Below, piece after piece: positions 10,672 to 56,441 of a stretch of 64,000 bases of DNA. The stretch spans positions 27,427 through 91,426 of the forward strand of contig JBBAAI010000001.1 in NCBI GenBank assembly GCA_041658325.1, written 5' to 3'. The notes under the pieces were generated by a model. That model ran no database searches. It was not told where the DNA came from and was given only the letters and a program-made list of their open reading frames with translations. This stretch comes from Minisyncoccota bacterium. GTDB lineage: Bacteria; Patescibacteriota; Minisyncoccia; Phycocordibacterales; UBA9973. Each line of letters begins with the position of its first letter. Positions within the stretch are counted from its first letter, which is position 1. Made by a program: the position numbers and the translations under genes.

Positions 10672-10780
<109 letters not shown>

Positions 10781-10869
10781 ACACTGAAAACTCGATTTTC
10801 AATGTTTGTTTTTTAATTTACCCCGTAGTGAGCTTTGCTCTACTACTGGGGTTGTGATTTACAAATTTC

Positions 10870-14150
<3,281 letters not shown>

Positions 14151-14328
14151 AATCACAAATCCAAACTTTACGTTTGGAACAAACAAAGCCAGAATTAAAT
14201 TTTTTTCACGACCGCTCGCTACTAAAATATTTCTCTTGGCTTTTTCCTGTTTCCAATAAAAAAGACCCTTCTAACATTAGAACAGGAATTTAGTTTTCAA
14301 TATTCAAGCCTTGCTGTCAAACAAAAAA

Positions 14329-15843: not shown

Positions 15844-15877
15844 CGTTTTATTGTAAAGCTTTTTTGATAAAAAACAA

Positions 15878-15911
15878 GCAAGCCCCGTCGCTCGCGAGCG
15901 ACGGGGCTTGC
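15878..15911 (-). terminator. rho-independent terminator (perfect 34-nt palindrome) after secreted protein gene
   Basis: gcaagccccgtcgctcgcgagcgacggggcttgc followed on minus strand by TTGTTTTTTATC. Confidence 0.7.
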
Positions 15912-15937
15912 TAACACACATTCAGAATGTTTAATCG

Positions 15938-17002
15938 CTAGTTTACTGTGAAATTCATAACATTACTTGTACCATTTGCATTTATCACTGAAACTGGATA
16001 AACACCAGGTTGAATCATTCTAGTAGCAATCATACAAGCAGGAGTTGAGTGCAAACAAGCTACATAATAACTAGAAGGGACGGTAAATGTAATACTCTTG
16101 TTGTAGGGACATGGGTATTTAAAACAAACAATACTATTTGCGTTGAGATTGTAAGCTGGATCATTTTCAGTATTAGTATCCCCAAATTTAATTTTATTAC
16201 CCGTTGCCGTAAAATTATCACCGAAGATTGTAACTTGGCTACCGGTAACACCAGAAACTGCAGACAAAGAAGACAATACAGGAGCTGCAGTGATCACTTC
16301 TCCTACTTTCACACTCAAACTAGTACTTGCACTGCTATTGGGACACGGATATGCAACACATACGATATTATTCGTAACCGTAAATTTAGGTGTATATTTC
16401 CCTGCTACTTTATAAGTGTGAGTAAAGGTAGCAGTCTGCCCAAGTTCTGGATATTTGAATAAACCAGCTGAAGATGATGTTGCAGAAGCTTCATCTCCCC
16501 ATACGACAGAGTATGAAAGCGTTCCTCCATTTTTATCATAAGCTGTTACTGTCCAGGTCCCTTCTTGGTTTACATTTAATGTTTGTGGTCCACTTACTCC
16601 GCTAATAATCACAGAAGATTGGACACTGGGTATCGCATAACATTTCAAACCCGTAGTTCTACTATATCCAGAAGCTGACTCACAACCTTCTGGGAAATTT
16701 CCTGAGTTTCCACCACGAGCAACCCAATTAGCGCGTGACTTAGCGCCAAACATACCATCAGCCATTAATCCCCATTTTAATTGCCAAGCCTTAACAGCAT
16801 TTTTGGTTTTCGGACCAAATTTACCATCGGCGAAAAGTCCTAAACTTTTCTGCAAACAAGTAACTTCACTTCCTGTTGAACCCACACGAAGAGTACGGAA
16901 AATAGAACAATCAGGAACAGAAACTTCTGTTGCGCTAGACACCCTACCAAAGAACGTAAAAACAAAAACCAACACAGCTAAAAACAATATATATTTTTTC
17001 AT
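15938..17002 (-). CDS. secreted protein: signal peptide, peptidoglycan-binding-like domain, Ig/PKD-like beta domains
   Basis: 354 aa; N-terminal hydrophobic signal; LRVGSTGSEVTCLQKSLG...DGKFGPKTKNAVKAWQ matches PG_binding_1-type pattern and is paralogous to N-terminus of the 1120-aa protein. Confidence 0.6.
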   Translation of the reverse strand: MKKYILFLAVLVFVFTFFGRVSSATEVSVPDCSIFRTLRVGSTGSEVTCLQKSLGLFADGKFGPKTKNAVKAWQLKWGLMADGMFGAKSRANWVARGGNSGNFPEGCESASGYSRTTGLKCYAIPSVQSSVIISGVSGPQTLNVNQEGTWTVTAYDKNGGTLSYSVVWGDEASATSSSAGLFKYPELGQTATFTHTYKVAGKYTPKFTVTNNIVCVAYPCPNSSASTSLSVKVGEVITAAPVLSSLSAVSGVTGSQVTIFGDNFTATGNKIKFGDTNTENDPAYNLNANSIVCFKYPCPYNKSITFTVPSSYYVACLHSTPACMIATRMIQPGVYPVSVINANGTSNVMNFTVN

Positions 17003-17535: not shown

Positions 17536-17666
17536 AATAATTTTTTGTTTAATTGTTAATGAGGATTATATTGTTTTTGAGACTTGCGCAGGCTGACTGA
17601 GCCGAGCATAGAAAATTTTTAACAAAAAATTATTCGTGTCTTAAAAATAATAAATCCGAATGACTA

Positions 17667-31526: not shown

Positions 31527-31536
31527 TTACTTTTAT

Positions 31537-31581
31537 TCAGGTCCTCGGTTCTCTGGGTCCCCTACCCCAGCCAGACCATTC
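31537..31581. repeat. GC-rich 45-nt dispersed repeat copy (recA upstream region)
   Basis: tcaggtcctcggttctctgggtcccctaccccagccagaccattc = reverse complement of 47174..47218 with one mismatch. Confidence 0.8.
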
Positions 31582-31612
31582 ATAAAAGCAATTATTCCTC
31601 TTTTAAAAAACA

Positions 31613-32671
31613 ATGCAAAAAAAGAAAGAAAAAAAAGAAGACAAAGCAGTAGGCGGAGCAGTATTGAATGACACACTAAAAGCTATTCAGACAAAATTCG
31701 GAGAAGGTTCAATAATGAAATTTGGAGATTCACCAAAAGTAAACATAAGTGTCATCCCGACTGGCTCCATCGGGCTTGATATGGCGCTCGGTATCGGCGG
31801 AATTCCTCGAGGCAGAATTATTGAAATATTTGGGCCAGAATCTTCTGGTAAAACAACTCTCTCCCTACACATCGTAGCTGAAGCACAAAAACTCGGCGGA
31901 GTTTGTGCATACATAGATGCCGAACACGCGATGGATCCTGATTATACGAAGAAACTCGGAGTAAATATAAACGACTTACTCATTTCTCAACCAGACAACG
32001 GAGAACAAGCTTTAGAAATAGTAGAATCTTTGGTGCGAACTGGAAAAATTGATGTTATTGTGGTGGATTCTGTGGCCGCCCTTACTCCGAAAGATGAAAT
32101 CGAGGGTGATATGGGAGCCTACCATGTCGGAAAACAGGCGCGTCTGATGTCCCAAGCGCTCCGCAAGCTCACGGCCATCGTAGCTCGATCTAAAACTGTT
32201 GTTATTTTTATAAATCAAATCCGTATGCAAATCGGAGTAATGTTCGGCAATCCAGAAACTACTCCGGGAGGAAAGGCTTTAAAATTTTATACTTCCGTAC
32301 GACTTGATATACGTAAAATCGCCCAAATCAAAAAGGGAGAAGAAATCGTTGGTAGTCGTACTCGCGTGAAAGTAGTAAAAAATAAAGTGGCCGCTCCATT
32401 TAAACAAACAGAATTTGACATTATTTACAATGAAGGTATTTCCAAAGAGGGAGAGATCATGGCCTTGGGTGAGAAGTTTAAGATTATTGAAAAAACTGGA
32501 AATTCATATTTCTACCTGCCTGCGCAGACAGGTACACCAGGCGGAGAAGCAAAGGAAAAAATAAAATTGGGAGTAGGTTATGATTCTACTCGAACCTTCT
32601 TAAAAGAAAATGAAAAAATTTCTAAGGAAATTCTAAAAGAAATTCGTAAAAAATTCGCCGAAGAAGCGTAA
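31613..32671 (+). CDS. recA: recombinase RecA
   Basis: 352 aa, Walker [11 protein letters not shown], full RecA pattern. Confidence 0.95.
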
Positions 32672-44306: not shown

Positions 44307-47300
44307 TTATTTTTCAATTTTTACTTTAAAAATTAAATCACCTATCTTCACCTCTTTCCCCTCGTTTCCTTTATATTCAATTTTAGACACGAGTACAACT
44401 TTTTTGATTTCCACTTCAAACTTTTCTATCAATTTTTTACCCATATCATTGGTTTCGACAACAAGGGTAACAACATCACTCGGAGTAAGCCCTATCTTCT
44501 TTCTTATCTCTTGTAGGGCTCGCGCCAATTCTCGATAATCTCCTTCTTGTTTTAATTCTCCGGTAATTTCTGTGTCTAGCAATACTTCTGTTTCTATATT
44601 TTTATTTTCTTTGATTTCTTTTATGTTTATTTCATCTTTTATGAGCTCCATATACTCTTCTTCTAGGTTGAAATTCTTTATTTGTAGTTTAGCAAGTGGT
44701 TGACGAACTTTTATCCCAGCTTTTTGTCTTGCCTCGAGGCCAAGAGTCACAATATTTCTAACTGCCTCCATTTTTTCTATAATTTTTGGTTCGCCAAATC
44801 CAAAAATACCAAAGACGGTCTTTAACACAGTCGGCCTGCCTGCGCAGGCAGGCCATTCTGCTAAATGCACACTTTCTTCATCTTTTTCATTTTTTAATTT
44901 TGACCAAATATCCTCTGCCGAAAATGGTGCGAATGGGGCAATCAATTTTGCCAGAGTTTTTAATATAAAATAGAGAGTTTGTTTTGCTTCGTTATCTCCT
45001 TCTTTTATTCTTTCACGCGAACGACGCAAATACCAAGTAGAGAGATCACCAACAAAATCTCGAAATGCCCTCGTTGGCTCAAGTAATTTGTAATTATCAA
45101 GATTCTTTGTTGTAAGTTCTATTAATTCATCCAGTCTCGTCAAAGTCCAAATGTCTAAAATATTTTTTGATTTAGGTTTGTTATTTTTTTCTAAATTTTT
45201 ATCTCTGTAAAGTTCATAAAACGCAAGCACGTTATAAAGCAACCCAAAAACTTGTTGATGCAACAAGGCCACAGTTTTTTCATCAAAATTCTTTGACTCA
45301 CCTGGCTGATTAACTGAATACATCCAGAGACGAAGTGTATCAACACCATATTTATCCATCGCTTCCCATGGATCAACAATATTACCGAGAGATTTAGACA
45401 TTTTTTTACCCTTAGCATCAAGTAAATGTCCTAAACAGATAACGTTTTTAAAAGCCTTCCCTCGCCCCACAAGCATTCCCACGGCGTGCAGAGTGTAAAA
45501 CCATCCGCGTGTTTGATCTATCGCCTCTGAAATGAAGTCAGCAGGATAACCTGGACCATCTACCCAATTTTTATTTTCAAATGGGTAGTGATCTTGCGCG
45601 AAAGGCATCGCACCGGAATCAAACCAAACATCCATCACTTCTTTTGTTCTTACCAAATTACCACTACAACTACAAACAAGCGGCACTTTGTCTATGTACG
45701 GTTTGTGCAAATCTAATTCATAATTTTCATTATGTGGGAGAATTGAAAAATCTATTTCTTTAATTTCGGCATTCTTTATATTATCCTTTTCGCCCCGAAA
45801 TTCTATAGTGTTTTTTTTATCAAGACCCAAAGCCACAGATATAAGCAAAAAGGCAGTCACTTCGTGTGTTACTAATAAAATATTTTTATTAGTATATTTA
45901 GACTCAAGCTCATAAATTAATTTTCCAACTCTGTTTTTAACATCGGTATAGGATTCTCCACCTTCTGGTCTTTTTTCAAAACGTATCAAAGTATGAGGAA
46001 ACTCTTTTAGTAAGTCATCAATTTTTTTACCATTATATTTGCCGACGTTCCACTCTAGCAAAGAATCCTCTTCGATTGTCTGCTCCTTCTTTATTCCGAG
46101 AGACGAAATAATAATTTCTGCAGTTTCTTTCGTTCTCGTTAAGGGAGAATATATGACTAGATCAATTTTTGCATTTTTCAATTCTTGCGCACTTTTTCTT
46201 ACTTGTTCTTTCCCCTTTTCAGTAAGGTGGTAGTTGTCGTTTAGAGAATTAGATAAAATATTTTGAACATTGTTTTCTGATTCTCCATGTCGCATCACAA
46301 AATATTTATTCCCAGATTTTTTTGTCTTTTCTTTTATTTCTTCCAAACTCCCCAGAACATCAATTTTTTTACATTTTTCACATTGCCAAACCGGAAGCGG
46401 GGTTCCCCAATATCGCTCGCGAGAAACTGCCCAGTCTTTTATCTCCCTTAGCCACTCACCGAAACGTCCATCACGAATATGTGCTGGTTCCCAATTTATT
46501 TCTTTGTTTTCCGCAATCATCTTTTCTTTGATTTTTGGATCAGTTACTCTGATATACCAAGAATCCCGCGCATAATAAATGAGCGCAGTATGACAACGCC
46601 AACAATGCGGATATGAGTGTTCATATTTTTCTTTTTTCAATAACAATCCGCGGTGCGCCAAATCCTTAATAACATCAACTGCCACTTCTTCGTCTCTTAC
46701 AAATCTGCCTTCAAAAATATCTGTGCCAGGCAAGAATTTACCATCTAGGCCCACGAGATGCTGTTTCGGTAAACTAATTTGCGTTCCGAGAGCAAAGTCA
46801 TCTTGCCCATACATCACCGCCGTGTGCACAACACCAGTTCCATCTTCAGTCGTCACGAAATCTGCCCCGTAAACTTTGTATGCTTTTTCTAATTTCGGTT
46901 TTTCGCTTTCAGAAATAATATTGGCAAGATACGGATAAAGTGGTTCGTATTCTAAGCCGATTAAATCTTTGCCTTTCATTTCTTCTGTAATTTCATATTC
47001 ACCATCAATTATGGAAAGTCGGGCCTTAGCTAAGATAAAAATCTCGTTGCCAAATTTAATTTTCACATAATCAATATCTTTACCAACTGCCAAAGCAACG
47101 TTCCCCGGCAATGTCCAAGGAGTCGTCGTCCAAGCTAGAATATATGTATTAGCCGAAGCCGTATGCTTGTGCGAATGGTCTGGCTGGGGTTGGGGACCCA
47201 GAGAACCGAGGACCTGAGCAGAAGCATCGGCGAAGGCCTTTATTTTAAATTTCACATAAACAGACAAATCTTTTACATCTTCATACCCTTGGGCTAGTTC

Positions 47301-47888
47301 GTGCGAAGAAAGAGCTGTGCCACAACGCGGACACCAAGGTACGACTTTATAATCTTTATAAAGTAAATTCTGTTCGTTTATTTTTTTTACGATATTCCAA
47401 ACAGATTCAATAAATTTATTGTGATAAGTAACATATGGATTTTCTTGATCCACCCAATATCCGATACGCTTGGTAAATTTATTCCAAATTTCCAAATATT
47501 CCCAAACGCTTTCTTTACATTCCTGATTAAATTTCGCAATTCCATATTCTTCAATCGCCTTTTTGGAATTAAGTCCCAATTTTTTTTCTACTTGTAATTC
47601 CACAGGAAGACCATGCGTATCCCATCCGCCTTTTCGGCGCACGTGATATCCCTGCATCGTTTTATATCTCGGGATTACGTCCTTGAACGCTCGCGCCTCC
47701 AAATGGTGAATCCCCGGCTTGCCGTTTGCCGTCGGTGGACCTTCGTAAAAAATAAATTCCTTCTTCCCTTCAGTTTGTTCTAGAGATTTCTCAAAAATTT
47801 TCTTTTCTTTCCAAAATTCTAAAATTCTTTCCTCGCGCAACGCCGTTTCACTTTTTTTGTTTGTCTTGTTTGTTTCTTCTTCTTTCAT
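44307..47888 (-). CDS. ileS: isoleucyl-tRNA synthetase with in-frame inserted histidine-phosphatase (PGAM-like) domain
   Basis: 1193 aa single ORF; IleRS motifs (PPTANGKPGIHH, WTTTPWTLP, CP1 editing region, KMSKS, DVWFDSG); residues ~527-690 contain RHGE, SPLTRTKETA, EGGES, LVTHE = histidine phosphatase signature. Confidence 0.9.
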   Translation of the reverse strand: MKEEETNKTNKKSETALREERILEFWKEKKIFEKSLEQTEGKKEFIFYEGPPTANGKPGIHHLEARAFKDVIPRYKTMQGYHVRRKGGWDTHGLPVELQVEKKLGLNSKKAIEEYGIAKFNQECKESVWEYLEIWNKFTKRIGYWVDQENPYVTYHNKFIESVWNIVKKINEQNLLYKDYKVVPWCPRCGTALSSHELAQGYEDVKDLSVYVKFKIKAFADASAQVLGSLGPQPQPDHSHKHTASANTYILAWTTTPWTLPGNVALAVGKDIDYVKIKFGNEIFILAKARLSIIDGEYEITEEMKGKDLIGLEYEPLYPYLANIISESEKPKLEKAYKVYGADFVTTEDGTGVVHTAVMYGQDDFALGTQISLPKQHLVGLDGKFLPGTDIFEGRFVRDEEVAVDVIKDLAHRGLLLKKEKYEHSYPHCWRCHTALIYYARDSWYIRVTDPKIKEKMIAENKEINWEPAHIRDGRFGEWLREIKDWAVSRERYWGTPLPVWQCEKCKKIDVLGSLEEIKEKTKKSGNKYFVMRHGESENNVQNILSNSLNDNYHLTEKGKEQVRKSAQELKNAKIDLVIYSPLTRTKETAEIIISSLGIKKEQTIEEDSLLEWNVGKYNGKKIDDLLKEFPHTLIRFEKRPEGGESYTDVKNRVGKLIYELESKYTNKNILLVTHEVTAFLLISVALGLDKKNTIEFRGEKDNIKNAEIKEIDFSILPHNENYELDLHKPYIDKVPLVCSCSGNLVRTKEVMDVWFDSGAMPFAQDHYPFENKNWVDGPGYPADFISEAIDQTRGWFYTLHAVGMLVGRGKAFKNVICLGHLLDAKGKKMSKSLGNIVDPWEAMDKYGVDTLRLWMYSVNQPGESKNFDEKTVALLHQQVFGLLYNVLAFYELYRDKNLEKNNKPKSKNILDIWTLTRLDELIELTTKNLDNYKLLEPTRAFRDFVGDLSTWYLRRSRERIKEGDNEAKQTLYFILKTLAKLIAPFAPFSAEDIWSKLKNEKDEESVHLAEWPACAGRPTVLKTVFGIFGFGEPKIIEKMEAVRNIVTLGLEARQKAGIKVRQPLAKLQIKNFNLEEEYMELIKDEINIKEIKENKNIETEVLLDTEITGELKQEGDYRELARALQEIRKKIGLTPSDVVTLVVETNDMGKKLIEKFEVEIKKVVLVSKIEYKGNEGKEVKIGDLIFKVKIEK
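44833..44854. repeat. perfect 22-nt GC palindrome ggcctgcctgcgcaggcaggcc inside ileS (codes PACAGRP)
   Basis: 18-nt core cctgcctgcgcaggcagg also present at 56167..56184 inside comEC. Confidence 0.8.
47174..47218. repeat. GC-rich 45-nt dispersed repeat copy inside ileS (codes ASAQVLGSLGPQPQPD, an insertion before WTTTPWTLP)
   Basis: reverse complement of 31537..31581, 44/45 identical. Confidence 0.8.
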
Positions 47889-54373: not shown

Positions 54374-54964
54374 ATGCAAAAATTTGAAGAAATAAAATTT
54401 AATATTCTGGAACTAAAAGGCATCTCCAAGAAAAATATTGAGGAACATTTGAAACTCTATGCTGGATATGTAAAATCCACTAATTTGATTTGGGAGAAAA
54501 TCGGCGAACTCATGGCGGACTCCGAAAAAAATGTTTACGTCATCGGAGAAATGCAAAGAAGATTGGGTTTTGAATTTAATGGTATGCGAAATCATGAATA
54601 TTTTTTCAAATCATTGGAAGGTGGAGTGAAATCGCTTCCAGAAAATTCTGAATTTAAAAAAGAAATAGAAAAAGATCTACCATTTGAAAAATGGCTAGCT
54701 AATTTCAAAATGCTTGCGATGACACGTGGTCCCGGCTGGGCAGTACTTTATTGGGATAAACAGACAAAACAATTCGTGGCTACGTGGGTAGACGAGCATC
54801 ATATGGGTCAACTAAATAGCCTTTCCTGGATTCTCGGCATTGATATGTGGGAACATGCTTTCGTTTATGATTACCCAACGTCGGAAAAGAAAAAATACAT
54901 AGAAGCATTTTTCGAAAATCTAAACTGGGAAGTAATTGAAGAAAATTTCAAAAACGCTCAGTAA
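54374..54964 (+). CDS. Fe/Mn superoxide dismutase family protein
   Basis: 196 aa; NHEYFF (cf. NHSLFW), D-x-WEHAF-x-YDY (cf. DVWEHAYY) metal-ligand positions conserved. Confidence 0.55.
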   Translation: MQKFEEIKFNILELKGISKKNIEEHLKLYAGYVKSTNLIWEKIGELMADSEKNVYVIGEMQRRLGFEFNGMRNHEYFFKSLEGGVKSLPENSEFKKEIEKDLPFEKWLANFKMLAMTRGPGWAVLYWDKQTKQFVATWVDEHHMGQLNSLSWILGIDMWEHAFVYDYPTSEKKKYIEAFFENLNWEVIEENFKNAQ

Positions 54965-56441
54965 AAAATTCTTTTATATTCTTCCCAAAAAGTCTATAAA
55001 TAAAATAGATGTAAATTATCAGTGTAAGCCAAAGCGGAAAATTCGGGAAGGAAAATGAAGCAAAGGGTAAATTAGAGAAAAAACTGATAACACCAAGTTC
55101 ATAATGCAAGAATAAATACGAGATAAAACCAAATGGCACAGCCAGAACATACCAAATTAAACCAACAAAACCTGTGATAAAGCCGAGCAACATCGTAAAC
55201 GGAATAAACGGCAAAATTAAAATATTCGCCGGCAAGGCAACGAGTGAAAAGTTCCCCATTTTATAAAGAATAAAAGGAAAGACAAAAATATACGCAGCAC
55301 AGGTGACAGAAACAATATCCCGCAAACCGAAACTTTTCGTAACCCAGGTAAAATATTTTTCAATTCTAGGCGCCAGAAATATTACGGCAACGGTGGCGAT
55401 AAAAGAAAGTTGAAAAGAAACATCAAAAGCAAGAAGAAAGGGATTTAAAATTATCATAAATACTCCTGCGAGAATTAATGCTCTCGCTACATCATAATTT
55501 CTCCCCGTAGCCCGCGCAATGAGCGCCAAGGTCGCCATTATCCCCGCGCGGATAGCCGTCGAGCTCGCGCCTGTCATTAAAACAAATAACATAATCGCCA
55601 AAATTCCAGTCCAAATAGCAAAATTTATCGGCAAGAAAGCAAATAATTTCATAATCCACTCTGCGACGATGGTCACATTATAACCAGAGAGCGCAACGAT
55701 GTGTATCGTGCCAGTATTCACAAAACTTTGTCGCATAGGTTCATCAAAAGCAGATTTTTCCCCTAAAATAAGCCCGCCCATTAATAAATTCTCCGGAGTA
55801 TTTATGGCAAAGTTCATTTTTTCTAAAAACTTTTCTTTCACAAAGAAAAGTGCACTCTGTATAAAATTGCCATTACCACGTGAGATGATTTCAATTTTTG
55901 GATAACCCATTACATATAAAATTCCATCTTTGCGAAGATAATTTACATAATCAAATTCTTTGCCCGTGTCGGTAATAAAGTCCTCTGGCTTTTCCAGTTT
56001 TCCGGAAAAGTTTATTTCATCTCCATATTTGTATTCAGTATCTAAACCAGTAGTTATTAAAATTTCAGTTTCAACATTCCCTTCCTCTGTTTCCACTGTT
56101 AGTTGCTGACTGTTTTCTTTAATATTCGGCTCGTCCACAAGTTCTCCGAAAAAAGAAACTTTCTGCCCTGCCTGCGCAGGCAGGCTCACCTGCGACTCAA
56201 ATACGGGTGGATTAGGTACATCAACCATCTGAAACCTAAAAATTCCAAAAGAGAAAGCTAAAATAAAAATTGAAACTAAAATTCCCCACTTGTTCTTGCT
56301 AATTAAACTAAAAAATAAACATAAAGCTACGGCAATAACTGAACACAAAATAGCAAAATATAAATTTACAAAAACAACGGAACGCAAAAGGACTCCGAAC
56401 AAAAATCCGAAGCATGTTATGTAAAAAATTTTATCCCGCAT
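54948..56441 (-). CDS. comEC: ComEC/Rec2 competence channel protein (DUF4131 OB + competence domain, no MBL domain)
   Basis: 497 aa, polytopic membrane with ComEC competence-domain pattern; carries in-frame GC palindrome. Confidence 0.7.
   Translation of the reverse strand: MRDKIFYITCFGFLFGVLLRSVVFVNLYFAILCSVIAVALCLFFSLISKNKWGILVSIFILAFSFGIFRFQMVDVPNPPVFESQVSLPAQAGQKVSFFGELVDEPNIKENSQQLTVETEEGNVETEILITTGLDTEYKYGDEINFSGKLEKPEDFITDTGKEFDYVNYLRKDGILYVMGYPKIEIISRGNGNFIQSALFFVKEKFLEKMNFAINTPENLLMGGLILGEKSAFDEPMRQSFVNTGTIHIVALSGYNVTIVAEWIMKLFAFLPINFAIWTGILAIMLFVLMTGASSTAIRAGIMATLALIARATGRNYDVARALILAGVFMIILNPFLLAFDVSFQLSFIATVAVIFLAPRIEKYFTWVTKSFGLRDIVSVTCAAYIFVFPFILYKMGNFSLVALPANILILPFIPFTMLLGFITGFVGLIWYVLAVPFGFISYLFLHYELGVISFFSNLPFASFSFPNFPLWLTLIIYIYFIYRLFGKNIKEFFTERF
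56167..56184. repeat. GC palindrome cctgcctgcgcaggcagg inside comEC (codes LPAQAG)
   Basis: identical 18-mer to ileS 44835..44852. Confidence 0.8.

Follow-up and report, generated by a model that had tools for sequence, protein, structure and literature searches.

How does one perfect, GC-rich palindrome come to lie inside several unrelated genes of a single bacterium, and what keeps its copies so nearly identical? The question is raised by a 64,000-nucleotide stretch of the genome of a Minisyncoccota bacterium (GenBank assembly GCA_041658325.1, contig JBBAAI010000001.1), referred to here as the window. An 18-bp palindrome (CCTGCCTGCGCAGGCAGG, hereafter the 18-mer) stands in it twice in exact form, in ileS and in comEC, and once with a single mismatch, in recA (Table 1). 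On balance, we favour the view that each of these sites holds a copy of a dispersed palindromic insertion element of very small size, which would be among the most compact pieces of mobile DNA yet described.

An earlier note on this DNA had drawn attention to a 22-nt perfect palindrome in ileS (ggcctgcctgcgcaggcaggcc, positions 44833-44854) and to its 18-nt core in comEC, lying there in another frame. Both observations are confirmed by the sequence and its translations, which read HLAEWPACAGRPTVLK in IleRS and ESQVSLPAQAGQKVSF in ComEC. The note had also judged chance recurrence to be very unlikely, and rightly: 100 dinucleotide-preserving shuffles of the window, whose G+C content is 34-46%, give 0.00 expected matches, against three found at up to three mismatches, namely the two exact copies and the recA copy that the note had overlooked. 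Its gene identities are supported by Pfam and PDB matches, with L10 and L7/L12 flanking the rplJ-rplL spacer at 17.5-17.7 kb. The weak third copy that it placed in this spacer, at 17588, has to be dropped. The site is merely TGCGCAGGC within gagaCTTGCGCAGGCTGA, differs from the 18-mer at seven positions and is absent from the window matches at up to three mismatches. Since chance alone should produce about 0.5 near-matches as good as this one to the 12-mer core, it does not count as a copy.

The 18-mer has the structure (CCTG)2-CG-(CAGG)2. The longer palindrome in ileS consists of this unit together with the target's own GG and CC, because the filled site reads TGG-(18 nt)-CCG where an empty orthologous site reads TGG CCA. 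Folded as single-stranded DNA, the copies are predicted to form modest hairpins, of -12 kcal/mol in the 22-mer context and -7 kcal/mol for the comEC copy. All three lie inside essential genes (ileS, comEC and recA). Rfam matches in the window are to 23S and 5S rRNA only, and we found no published description of the 18-mer in open-access papers and bioRxiv.

Table 1. Copies of the 18-mer in the window, their host open reading frames (ORFs), and the sites occupied by its peptides in ComEC orthologs.
Feature	Position	Strand	Context
Exact 18-mer	44835..44852		In ileS at TGG^CCG; minus-strand reading PACAGR, IleRS residues 1013-1018
Exact 18-mer	56167..56184		In comEC; minus-strand reading (S)LPAQAG, ComEC residues 86-92
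One-mismatch 18-mer, CCTGCCTGCGCAGACAGG	32515..32532		In recA; plus-strand reading LPAQTG, RecA residues 302-307
ileS host ORF	44307..47888	minus	1193 aa; Pfam tRNA-synt_1, Anticodon_1, DUF5915; PDB IleRS matches
comEC host ORF	54948..56441	minus	Pfam DUF4131 and Competence; 100% identical to P0121, source name 'ComEC/Rec2'
recA host ORF	31613..32671	plus	PDB RecA matches, E values down to 0
ComEC site 1			Window and P0164
ComEC site 2	NFG-LPAQAG-IGMG		Seven orthologs
ComEC site with CLRRQ reading	residue 54		P0137, P0142, P0179
Further ComEC site	residue 23		P0238

Filled and empty sites in orthologous genes

Comparison of ileS and comEC with their orthologs, which the earlier note had proposed as a check, shows the inserted residues to be missing from 118 of 120 sequences for each protein. 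In the IleRS orthologs without the six residues (Minisyncoccia/Paceibacterota, at most 76% identical to the window's protein), the conserved SVHLxxWP runs straight into a length-variable loop, and WP-ACAGRP was seen only in the window and in one of the 120 orthologs, P0017. The corresponding DNA reads TGG-CCTGCCTGCGCAGGCAGG-CCG ACT in the window and TGG-(identical 18 nt)-CCT AAG in the contig of P0017 (L121), while the empty site in L122, which is 70% identical, reads TGG CCA ATA. The P0017 protein is only 64% identical to the window's IleRS, yet its site is filled, and closer orthologs are empty.

ComEC gives a second set of filled and empty sites. Orthologs without the insert (69-100% identical for the set) have the conserved motif FESQV-G-QK, and the insertion point falls inside its Gly codon, giving V-S-LPAQA-G-QK in the window and V-G-LPAQA-G-QK in P0164. 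In the contig of P0164 (L149) the filled DNA is GTG GG-(18 nt)-G CAA; the empty sites are GTG GGG CAA in L150 and GTT GGG CAA in L151, and a BLAST alignment of L149 with L150 shows one clean 18-nt gap at this point. The recA copy interrupts a Tyr codon (TA^T) in a loop of the C-terminal domain that exceeds its counterpart in E. coli RecA by 13 residues, and once the 18 nt are deleted the sequence is colinear with orthologs (e.g. FYTPSGEKAEK).

Insertion can also be followed outside protein genes. At the Parcubacteria-type loci L027, L037, L038, L042 and L110, the 18-mer stands inside a relic 5' copy of tRNA-Gln, between GG(G/A)TC(G/A) (...TCG) and TCTAATGG or TCTAATGGTAGGA, and the intact tRNA-Gln nearby has the uninterrupted sequence, i.e. 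an empty site. No target-site duplication was found at the DNA-level empty/filled pairs of ileS, comEC and tRNA-Gln. The tRNA-Gln loci and the ileS and comEC pairs therefore define the inserted unit as 18 bp without target-site duplication, with a placement ambiguity of at most 1-2 nt. As judged from these alignments, all three window copies read as clean six-codon insertions in variable loops. The earlier proposal of a palindromic element inserted with reading frames preserved is upheld: orthologs lack exactly six codons, empty sites are 18 bp shorter and the unit is free of stops in every frame.

Two of these comparisons involve loci with features of their own. The relic 5' tRNA-Gln with its 18-mer adjoins an intact tRNA-Gln in L027 (1690-2110), L037 (3490-4030), L038 (6640-7190) and L110 (389-730). 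Between relic and intact gene lies a small GIY-YIG ORF in L027 and L110 and an HNH ORF in L037; in L038 the intact tRNA-Gln instead has a GIY-YIG ORF directly upstream, on the side away from the relic. These loci resemble free-standing homing-endonuclease cassettes with the tRNA-Gln gene as their target. A general link between the 18-mer and GIY-YIG/HNH homing endonucleases was rejected, as it is confined to the tRNA-Gln loci, and tblastn with the GIY-YIG protein matches six loci among at least 120. The two Paceibacterota contigs compared for comEC, L149 (1-7288) and L150 (55-7342), share 7.3 kb at 99.9% identity, with adjoining DNA at just 74-88%. This shared stretch, which carries type IV pilus/type II secretion system genes, TIM and PGK, seems to have been transferred or recombined recently between lineages that have diverged.

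Distribution, target preference and translation

The earlier note would have taken a lack of further copies, together with amino-acid conservation in orthologs, as a sign of coincidence or ordinary coding constraint. A scan of the GTDB species-representative genomes for exact matches instead found the 18-mer at at least 120 loci; the copies described below are thus ascertained on exactness. The carrier genomes were read in pieces of 8-20 kb, about 1 Mb of carrier DNA altogether. By record title, 71 among the at least 120 loci listed belong to Patescibacteria, including WWE3, Microgenomates groups, Paceibacterota/Parcubacteria groups, Saccharibacteria, Dojkabacteria and others, and eight further loci among the matches listed come from metagenome-assembled genomes (MAGs) titled just 'bacterium'. 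The remaining carriers among the matches listed belong to Bacteroidota, where one Sphingobacteriales MAG supplies seven loci, to MAGs labelled as Gammaproteobacteria and to a GC-rich tail, which plausibly represents chance matches. Two isolate genomes, of Litoribacter ruber and Rosettibacter primus, are also among the matches listed.

Copies occur in intergenic as well as in coding DNA, and their flanks are unrelated from locus to locus. The only regularity lies in the adjoining bases: across 87 copies from loci of at most 46% G+C, position -1 is a purine in 79% and position +1 a pyrimidine in 77%. This bias recurs among the 29 copies that are clearly intergenic, the two positions are uncorrelated with each other, and no longer target consensus emerged from the flanks. 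In the Sphingobacteriales MAG the 18-mer is nested in other repeats. Slippage variants with three CCTG or CAGG units occur, as does one 1.5-copy form.

Several familiar kinds of repeat were considered for the 18-mer and rejected. There are no CRISPR arrays, and copies are isolated, with a minimum spacing of 656 nt. An intrinsic terminator would call for a T-run, which is seen neither after the window copies, all of them within ORFs, nor in the flank profile. The termini of a larger transposon would be half-sites (CCTGCCTGC); these occur at chance level and form no pairs in the carrier DNA, and with no target-site duplication and no larger element bounded by half-sites the 18-mer is not a MITE either. 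A phage origin gains nothing from 25 viral-contig matches, mostly in DNA of 58-67% GC, which are uninformative. Selection for a longer stem was set aside, since flank complementarity does not exceed that expected from the purine and pyrimidine preferences, and a tandem-heptamer context, as in the small dispersed repeats (SDRs) of cyanobacteria, was seen at three or four of 87 copies (0.4-0.8% of positions in controls).

Whichever way it lies, the 18-mer supplies six codons that are stop-free in all three frames, and both strands read identically; insertion therefore never truncates a gene. Stop-free ORFs of at least 150 aa hold 80 of the 127 exact copies, read as LPAQAG in 57 cases, PACAGR in 15 and CLRRQ in eight. 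Among low-GC hosts the corresponding number is 49 of 87, divided 36:10:3 between LPAQAG, PACAGR and CLRRQ, where the target profile of intergenic copies, applied to the host ORFs, predicts 16.1:14.7:18.3 (chi-square about 39, 2 df). This frame bias is not a by-product of the preference for insertion between a purine and a pyrimidine, because the intergenic profile predicts near-equal frames. The excess of LPAQAG therefore indicates that genic copies are translated and filtered by selection. The CLRRQ (Cys-Leu-Arg-Arg-Gln) reading is selected against, and the copies that are retained lie in length-variable loops.

Recurrence, maintenance and competing explanations

The same proteins have been entered repeatedly. 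Peptides encoded by the 18-mer are present in 13 of 120 ComEC orthologs, at four sites (Table 1), and at two sites in IleRS. For comEC site 1 and for the ileS site, the lineages with a filled site are not sister to one another, and synonymous differences are numerous in the flanking codons as far as the edge of the element. Such fully diverged flanks imply either independent insertions or old insertions followed by many precise losses. The alternative that insertion alleles spread by homologous recombination was rejected, since shared insertions have flanks no less diverged than the remainder of the gene.

Under the interpretation that we favour, an 18-bp unit is inserted flush between a purine and a pyrimidine without duplicating its target. 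Coding insertions are tolerated by virtue of their six stop-free codons, and are filtered by selection on the peptide encoded and on position in a variable loop. The agent, we infer, is most likely an activity acting in trans that recognises the palindrome or its hairpin, either as duplex or as a 7-9-bp single-stranded structure. Hairpin-dependent HUH transposition and IS607-type serine recombination both characteristically insert DNA without a target-site duplication, and the putative activity might join the 18-mer into a flush break or nick in the manner of HUH (IS200/IS605, RAYT-type) or serine-recombinase (IS607-type) enzymes. It would also remove the 18-mer precisely, and turnover, or selection on the DNA itself, would keep copies near-perfect. 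A bolder version of this proposal is possible, and we hold it only tentatively. In this version no smaller mobile DNA unit of autonomous appearance would be known, the 18-mer consisting of nothing but a palindromic recognition site; a palindrome- or hairpin-specific, integrase-like activity shared horizontally among Patescibacteria would insert it and take it out precisely, turnover would keep it sequence-perfect, and it would be one of several families that remodel the surface loops of essential proteins.

A number of observations weigh against a mobile element. No mobilising enzyme (transposase, HUH or recombinase family) was found in the 72 ORFs adjoining intergenic copies; these ORFs include no Y1 HUH or RAYT gene, and no recurrent neighbour gene family save three GIY-YIG genes at the tRNA-Gln loci. 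The earlier note had suggested a possible recognition site for a restriction, nicking or recombination function. The 18-mer may be one, although neither the ORFs adjoining intergenic copies nor tblastn of the carrier loci with the GIY-YIG protein revealed a nuclease, methyltransferase or recombinase linked to the copies; its interpretation as a whole is partly supported. One metagenome scan, made for ileS, found neither an empty nor a filled population allele with the window's ileS flanks, and exact-protein look-ups of genes neighbouring ileS and comEC yielded no strain-level empty allele. Given the weak target preference, which extends no further than the adjoining purine and pyrimidine, repeated insertion at identical sites would have to mean that few sites tolerate it. 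Spread from copy to copy at low copy number, furthermore, does not easily account for exact identity across phyla.

The state of preservation of the copies, the least anticipated of the findings, adds to these difficulties. In the carrier DNA the mismatch spectrum comprises 127 exact copies and six with one mismatch, then a gap at two and three mismatches, and finally 12 matches with four, close to background; one further copy with two mismatches, in L153, lies outside this spectrum. The copy at comEC site 2 is orthologous in six lineages whose comEC genes are 70-80% identical in nucleotide sequence. Three of them retain the exact 18-mer and three carry one synonymous change each, at element position 1, 2 or 4, and the codons CCT GCG CAG GCA are identical in all six. 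Fully identical codons make up four of seven in the element, against 27 of 187 (14%) other comEC codons for invariant amino acids (binomial P about 0.01, at a single site), and those conserved at site 2 are GC-rich within an AT-rich gene. Near-perfect copies and synonymous conservation together mean that simple neutral decay after insertion does not fit. Some maintaining process is needed, be it selection at the DNA or RNA level, conversion templated by other copies or renewed insertion, again and again, at favoured sites; a functional DNA motif fits the synonymous conservation at least as well as a mobile element does.

Such a motif is the main rival to the mobile element. In this explanation the 18-mer would be a selected DNA sequence, either a parS- or NBS-like site for a putative protein or a self-recognition/DNA-uptake signal in bacteria that bear ComEC and pili, and insertion would merely create new sites. 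It accounts well for a mismatch spectrum that stops beyond one mismatch, for synonymous positions conserved as GC-rich codons of an AT-rich gene in six diverged lineages, and for the failure to find a transposase among the 72 ORFs adjoining intergenic copies, and it has a precedent in parS, perfect palindromes of 16-18 bp conserved across phyla. We nevertheless think it unlikely. New copies arise as clean 18-bp insertions in essential genes and not as point mutations, and most orthologous sites are empty, so that no particular site is needed. The density of about three copies per 64 kb is far below the roughly one per kb of known uptake sequences, the fully diverged flanks of shared insertions show that no allele has spread by homologous uptake or recombination, and in the Sphingobacteriales MAG the 18-mer lies within other repeats.

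The exact composition of the unit, two inverted 9-mers (CCTGCCTGC and GCAGGCAGG), together with its slippage variants and 1.5-copy form, raises the alternative of a repair scar: a head-to-head footprint of two 9-bp inverted repeats left by transposon excision, or filler DNA copied in at a double-strand break. Palindromic excision footprints are known for eukaryotic cut-and-paste elements. We regard this as quite improbable, since about 1 Mb of carrier DNA contains no element bounded by half-sites and isolated half-sites only at chance level, the footprint would lack a target-site duplication, and the same footprint would be required in many phyla with no parent element in sight. A perfect palindrome found mostly in MAGs might also suggest an adapter or chimeric junction, yet the 18-mer comes from many unrelated projects, is present in isolate genomes (Litoribacter ruber and Rosettibacter primus) and lies inside contigs of up to 840 kb; an artefact would produce neither the reading-frame bias nor the purine/pyrimidine flanks, and would not bear lineage-specific synonymous changes at an orthologous copy. 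Sequencing or assembly error is accordingly very improbable. Coincidence, or ordinary coding constraint on similar peptides, could appeal to the small number of copies in the window, but is left with practically no probability by the shuffle expectation of 0.00, the exact copies in different frames, the orthologs without the residues and the at least 120 loci elsewhere.

Other inserts, significance and known systems

The proteins that carry the 18-mer have received other additions as well. A second GC-rich repeat, with a common 47-nt core TCAGGTCCTCGGTTCTCTGGGTCCCC(W)ACCCCAGCCAGACCATTC, lies at 31530-31590 and 47164-47224 of the window. One copy is intergenic, upstream of recA; the other is inverted and in frame in ileS (wider insert about 47151-47237), where it makes up residues 218-246 (AFADASAQVLGSLGPQPQPDHSHKHTASA) in place of three residues of the nearest solved IleRS. 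The copies form long hairpins with outer stems of different sequence, and have no viral-contig match. Within the catalytic domain of IleRS there is, in addition, a complete His_Phos_1 (phosphoglycerate-mutase-like) domain (45750-46301, residues 530-713, E = 5.6e-36); PF00300 is also present in several IleRS orthologs, and the fusion is therefore common to a clade.

An insert reading RASMDGARHDSAES is found in both IleRS and RecA orthologs, in the variable loops that hold the 18-mer. PLPxLPLTKGEEKGG and PASAKGSGEAK are inserts of RecA orthologs, and a hairpin in L092 (7554), CTCCCCCTTGCTAAGGGGGAG, encodes LPLAKGE. Orthologs and loci with other loop inserts comprise P0005, P0052, P0098 and P0108 for IleRS, P0243, P0247-P0250, P0252, P0253, P0258, P0268, P0272, P0275 and P0311 for RecA, and L155. 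Several families of short inserts seem to colonise the loops of essential Patescibacteria proteins. The carrier loci also contain a second perfect palindrome, (A)TCCGCCAGCTGGCGGA(T), seven times (L066 2080; L082 1716 and 7274; L097 7451; L105 4963; L107 5739; L112 5471), and a hairpin, TCATTCCCGCGAAGGCGGGAATC, in L037 with a near variant in L076.

Elsewhere in the window, a 36-nt perfect palindrome at 15877-15912 (AGCAAGCCCCGTCGCTCGCGAGCGACGGGGCTTGCT; -22.7 kcal/mol, z = -8.4) is followed on the minus strand by TGTTTTTT, directly after the ORF at 15938-17002, and is probably an intrinsic terminator. In the region 10676-14163, the 23S rRNA match measures 3271 nt against a 2925-nt model, so that about 350 nt are insertions; a 33-nt inverted repeat (10847-10879 and 14131-14163) brackets it, and 5S rRNA follows. 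The window as a whole yielded no tRNA gene.

The spread of very short palindromic repeats is a question decades old, posed by REPs without RAYTs, cyanobacterial SDRs, the palindromic elements of Rickettsia and mitochondrial GC clusters. The 18-mer offers an unusually clean case, with a unit of only 18 bp, base-exact boundaries, identity across a huge radiation, many empty and filled sites, and cultivable isolates, and a search for the responsible activity is therefore feasible. A small set of DNA elements supplies six-residue insertions that alter essential proteins of Patescibacteria (IleRS, RecA, ComEC). Such insertions bear on alignment, phylogeny and annotation, and may explain part of the lineage-specific insertions in proteins.

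Comparison with known systems may begin with those maintained by drive or selection. Like the uptake sequences DUS (Neisseria) and USS (Pasteurellaceae), parS and NBS, the 18-mer is a short conserved motif that occurs within genes in preferred frames. parS is a 16-bp palindrome conserved across phyla, and DUS and USS occur at about one copy per kb. These motifs arise by point mutation, however, and not by insertion of a whole unit, and the uptake sequences are about 20 times denser than the 18-mer. The mobile GC clusters of yeast mitochondrial DNA and the coding palindromes of Nematomorpha mitochondria (PMC6649704) are likewise GC-rich palindromic inserts in AT-rich genomes, sometimes in coding sequence, but they are organellar, longer and form heterogeneous families, some GC clusters having short target duplications. 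The Rickettsia palindromic elements resemble the 18-mer in being palindromic, in lying in frame in protein genes, essential ones included, and in being translated as extra surface peptides; they differ in measuring 100-150 bp, in being restricted to Rickettsia and in having divergent copies, whereas the 18-mer is identical across phyla.

REPs and REPINs share with the 18-mer a short, GC-rich palindrome able to form a single-stranded DNA hairpin, dispersal in many copies and the lack of a target-site duplication (PMC3116915, PMC3733652). REPs are imperfect palindromes of 20-40 bp with an unpaired GTAG/CGTC head, extragenic and species-specific, often arranged as inverted doublets, and they flank a RAYT gene (PMC3116915, PMC3733652). 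The 18-mer, in contrast, is perfect and has no GTAG/CGTC tag, its adjoining bases being just a purine on one side and a pyrimidine on the other. Its copies lie in ORFs in over half of all cases, are singletons with the closest pair 656 nt apart, and have no Y1 transposase nearby.

Of known elements, the closest in kind are the SDRs of Nostocaceae, followed by REPs/REPINs and the Rickettsia palindromic elements. The Nostocaceae repeats, SDR1-8, were reportedly described by Elhai et al. in Genome Research in 2008 and are said to be 21-27 nt long. Like the 18-mer, which at 18 nt is just under the published size range, they are very small, dispersed and hairpin-forming, are inserted seamlessly with no associated transposase, and show filled and empty orthologous sites; either can sit in other repeats and occasionally in tandem short repeats. 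The study of these SDRs is cited in PMC5861425 and PMC3116915. The 18-mer differs from them in being a perfect palindrome, in being shorter and in lying often in frame in essential protein genes. It is rarely found in a tandem-heptamer context, and self-nesting was not seen among its copies, whereas SDRs are frequently embedded or nested in this way. Finally, SDRs belong to one cyanobacterial family, while the 18-mer is spread over many classes of Patescibacteria and into other phyla.

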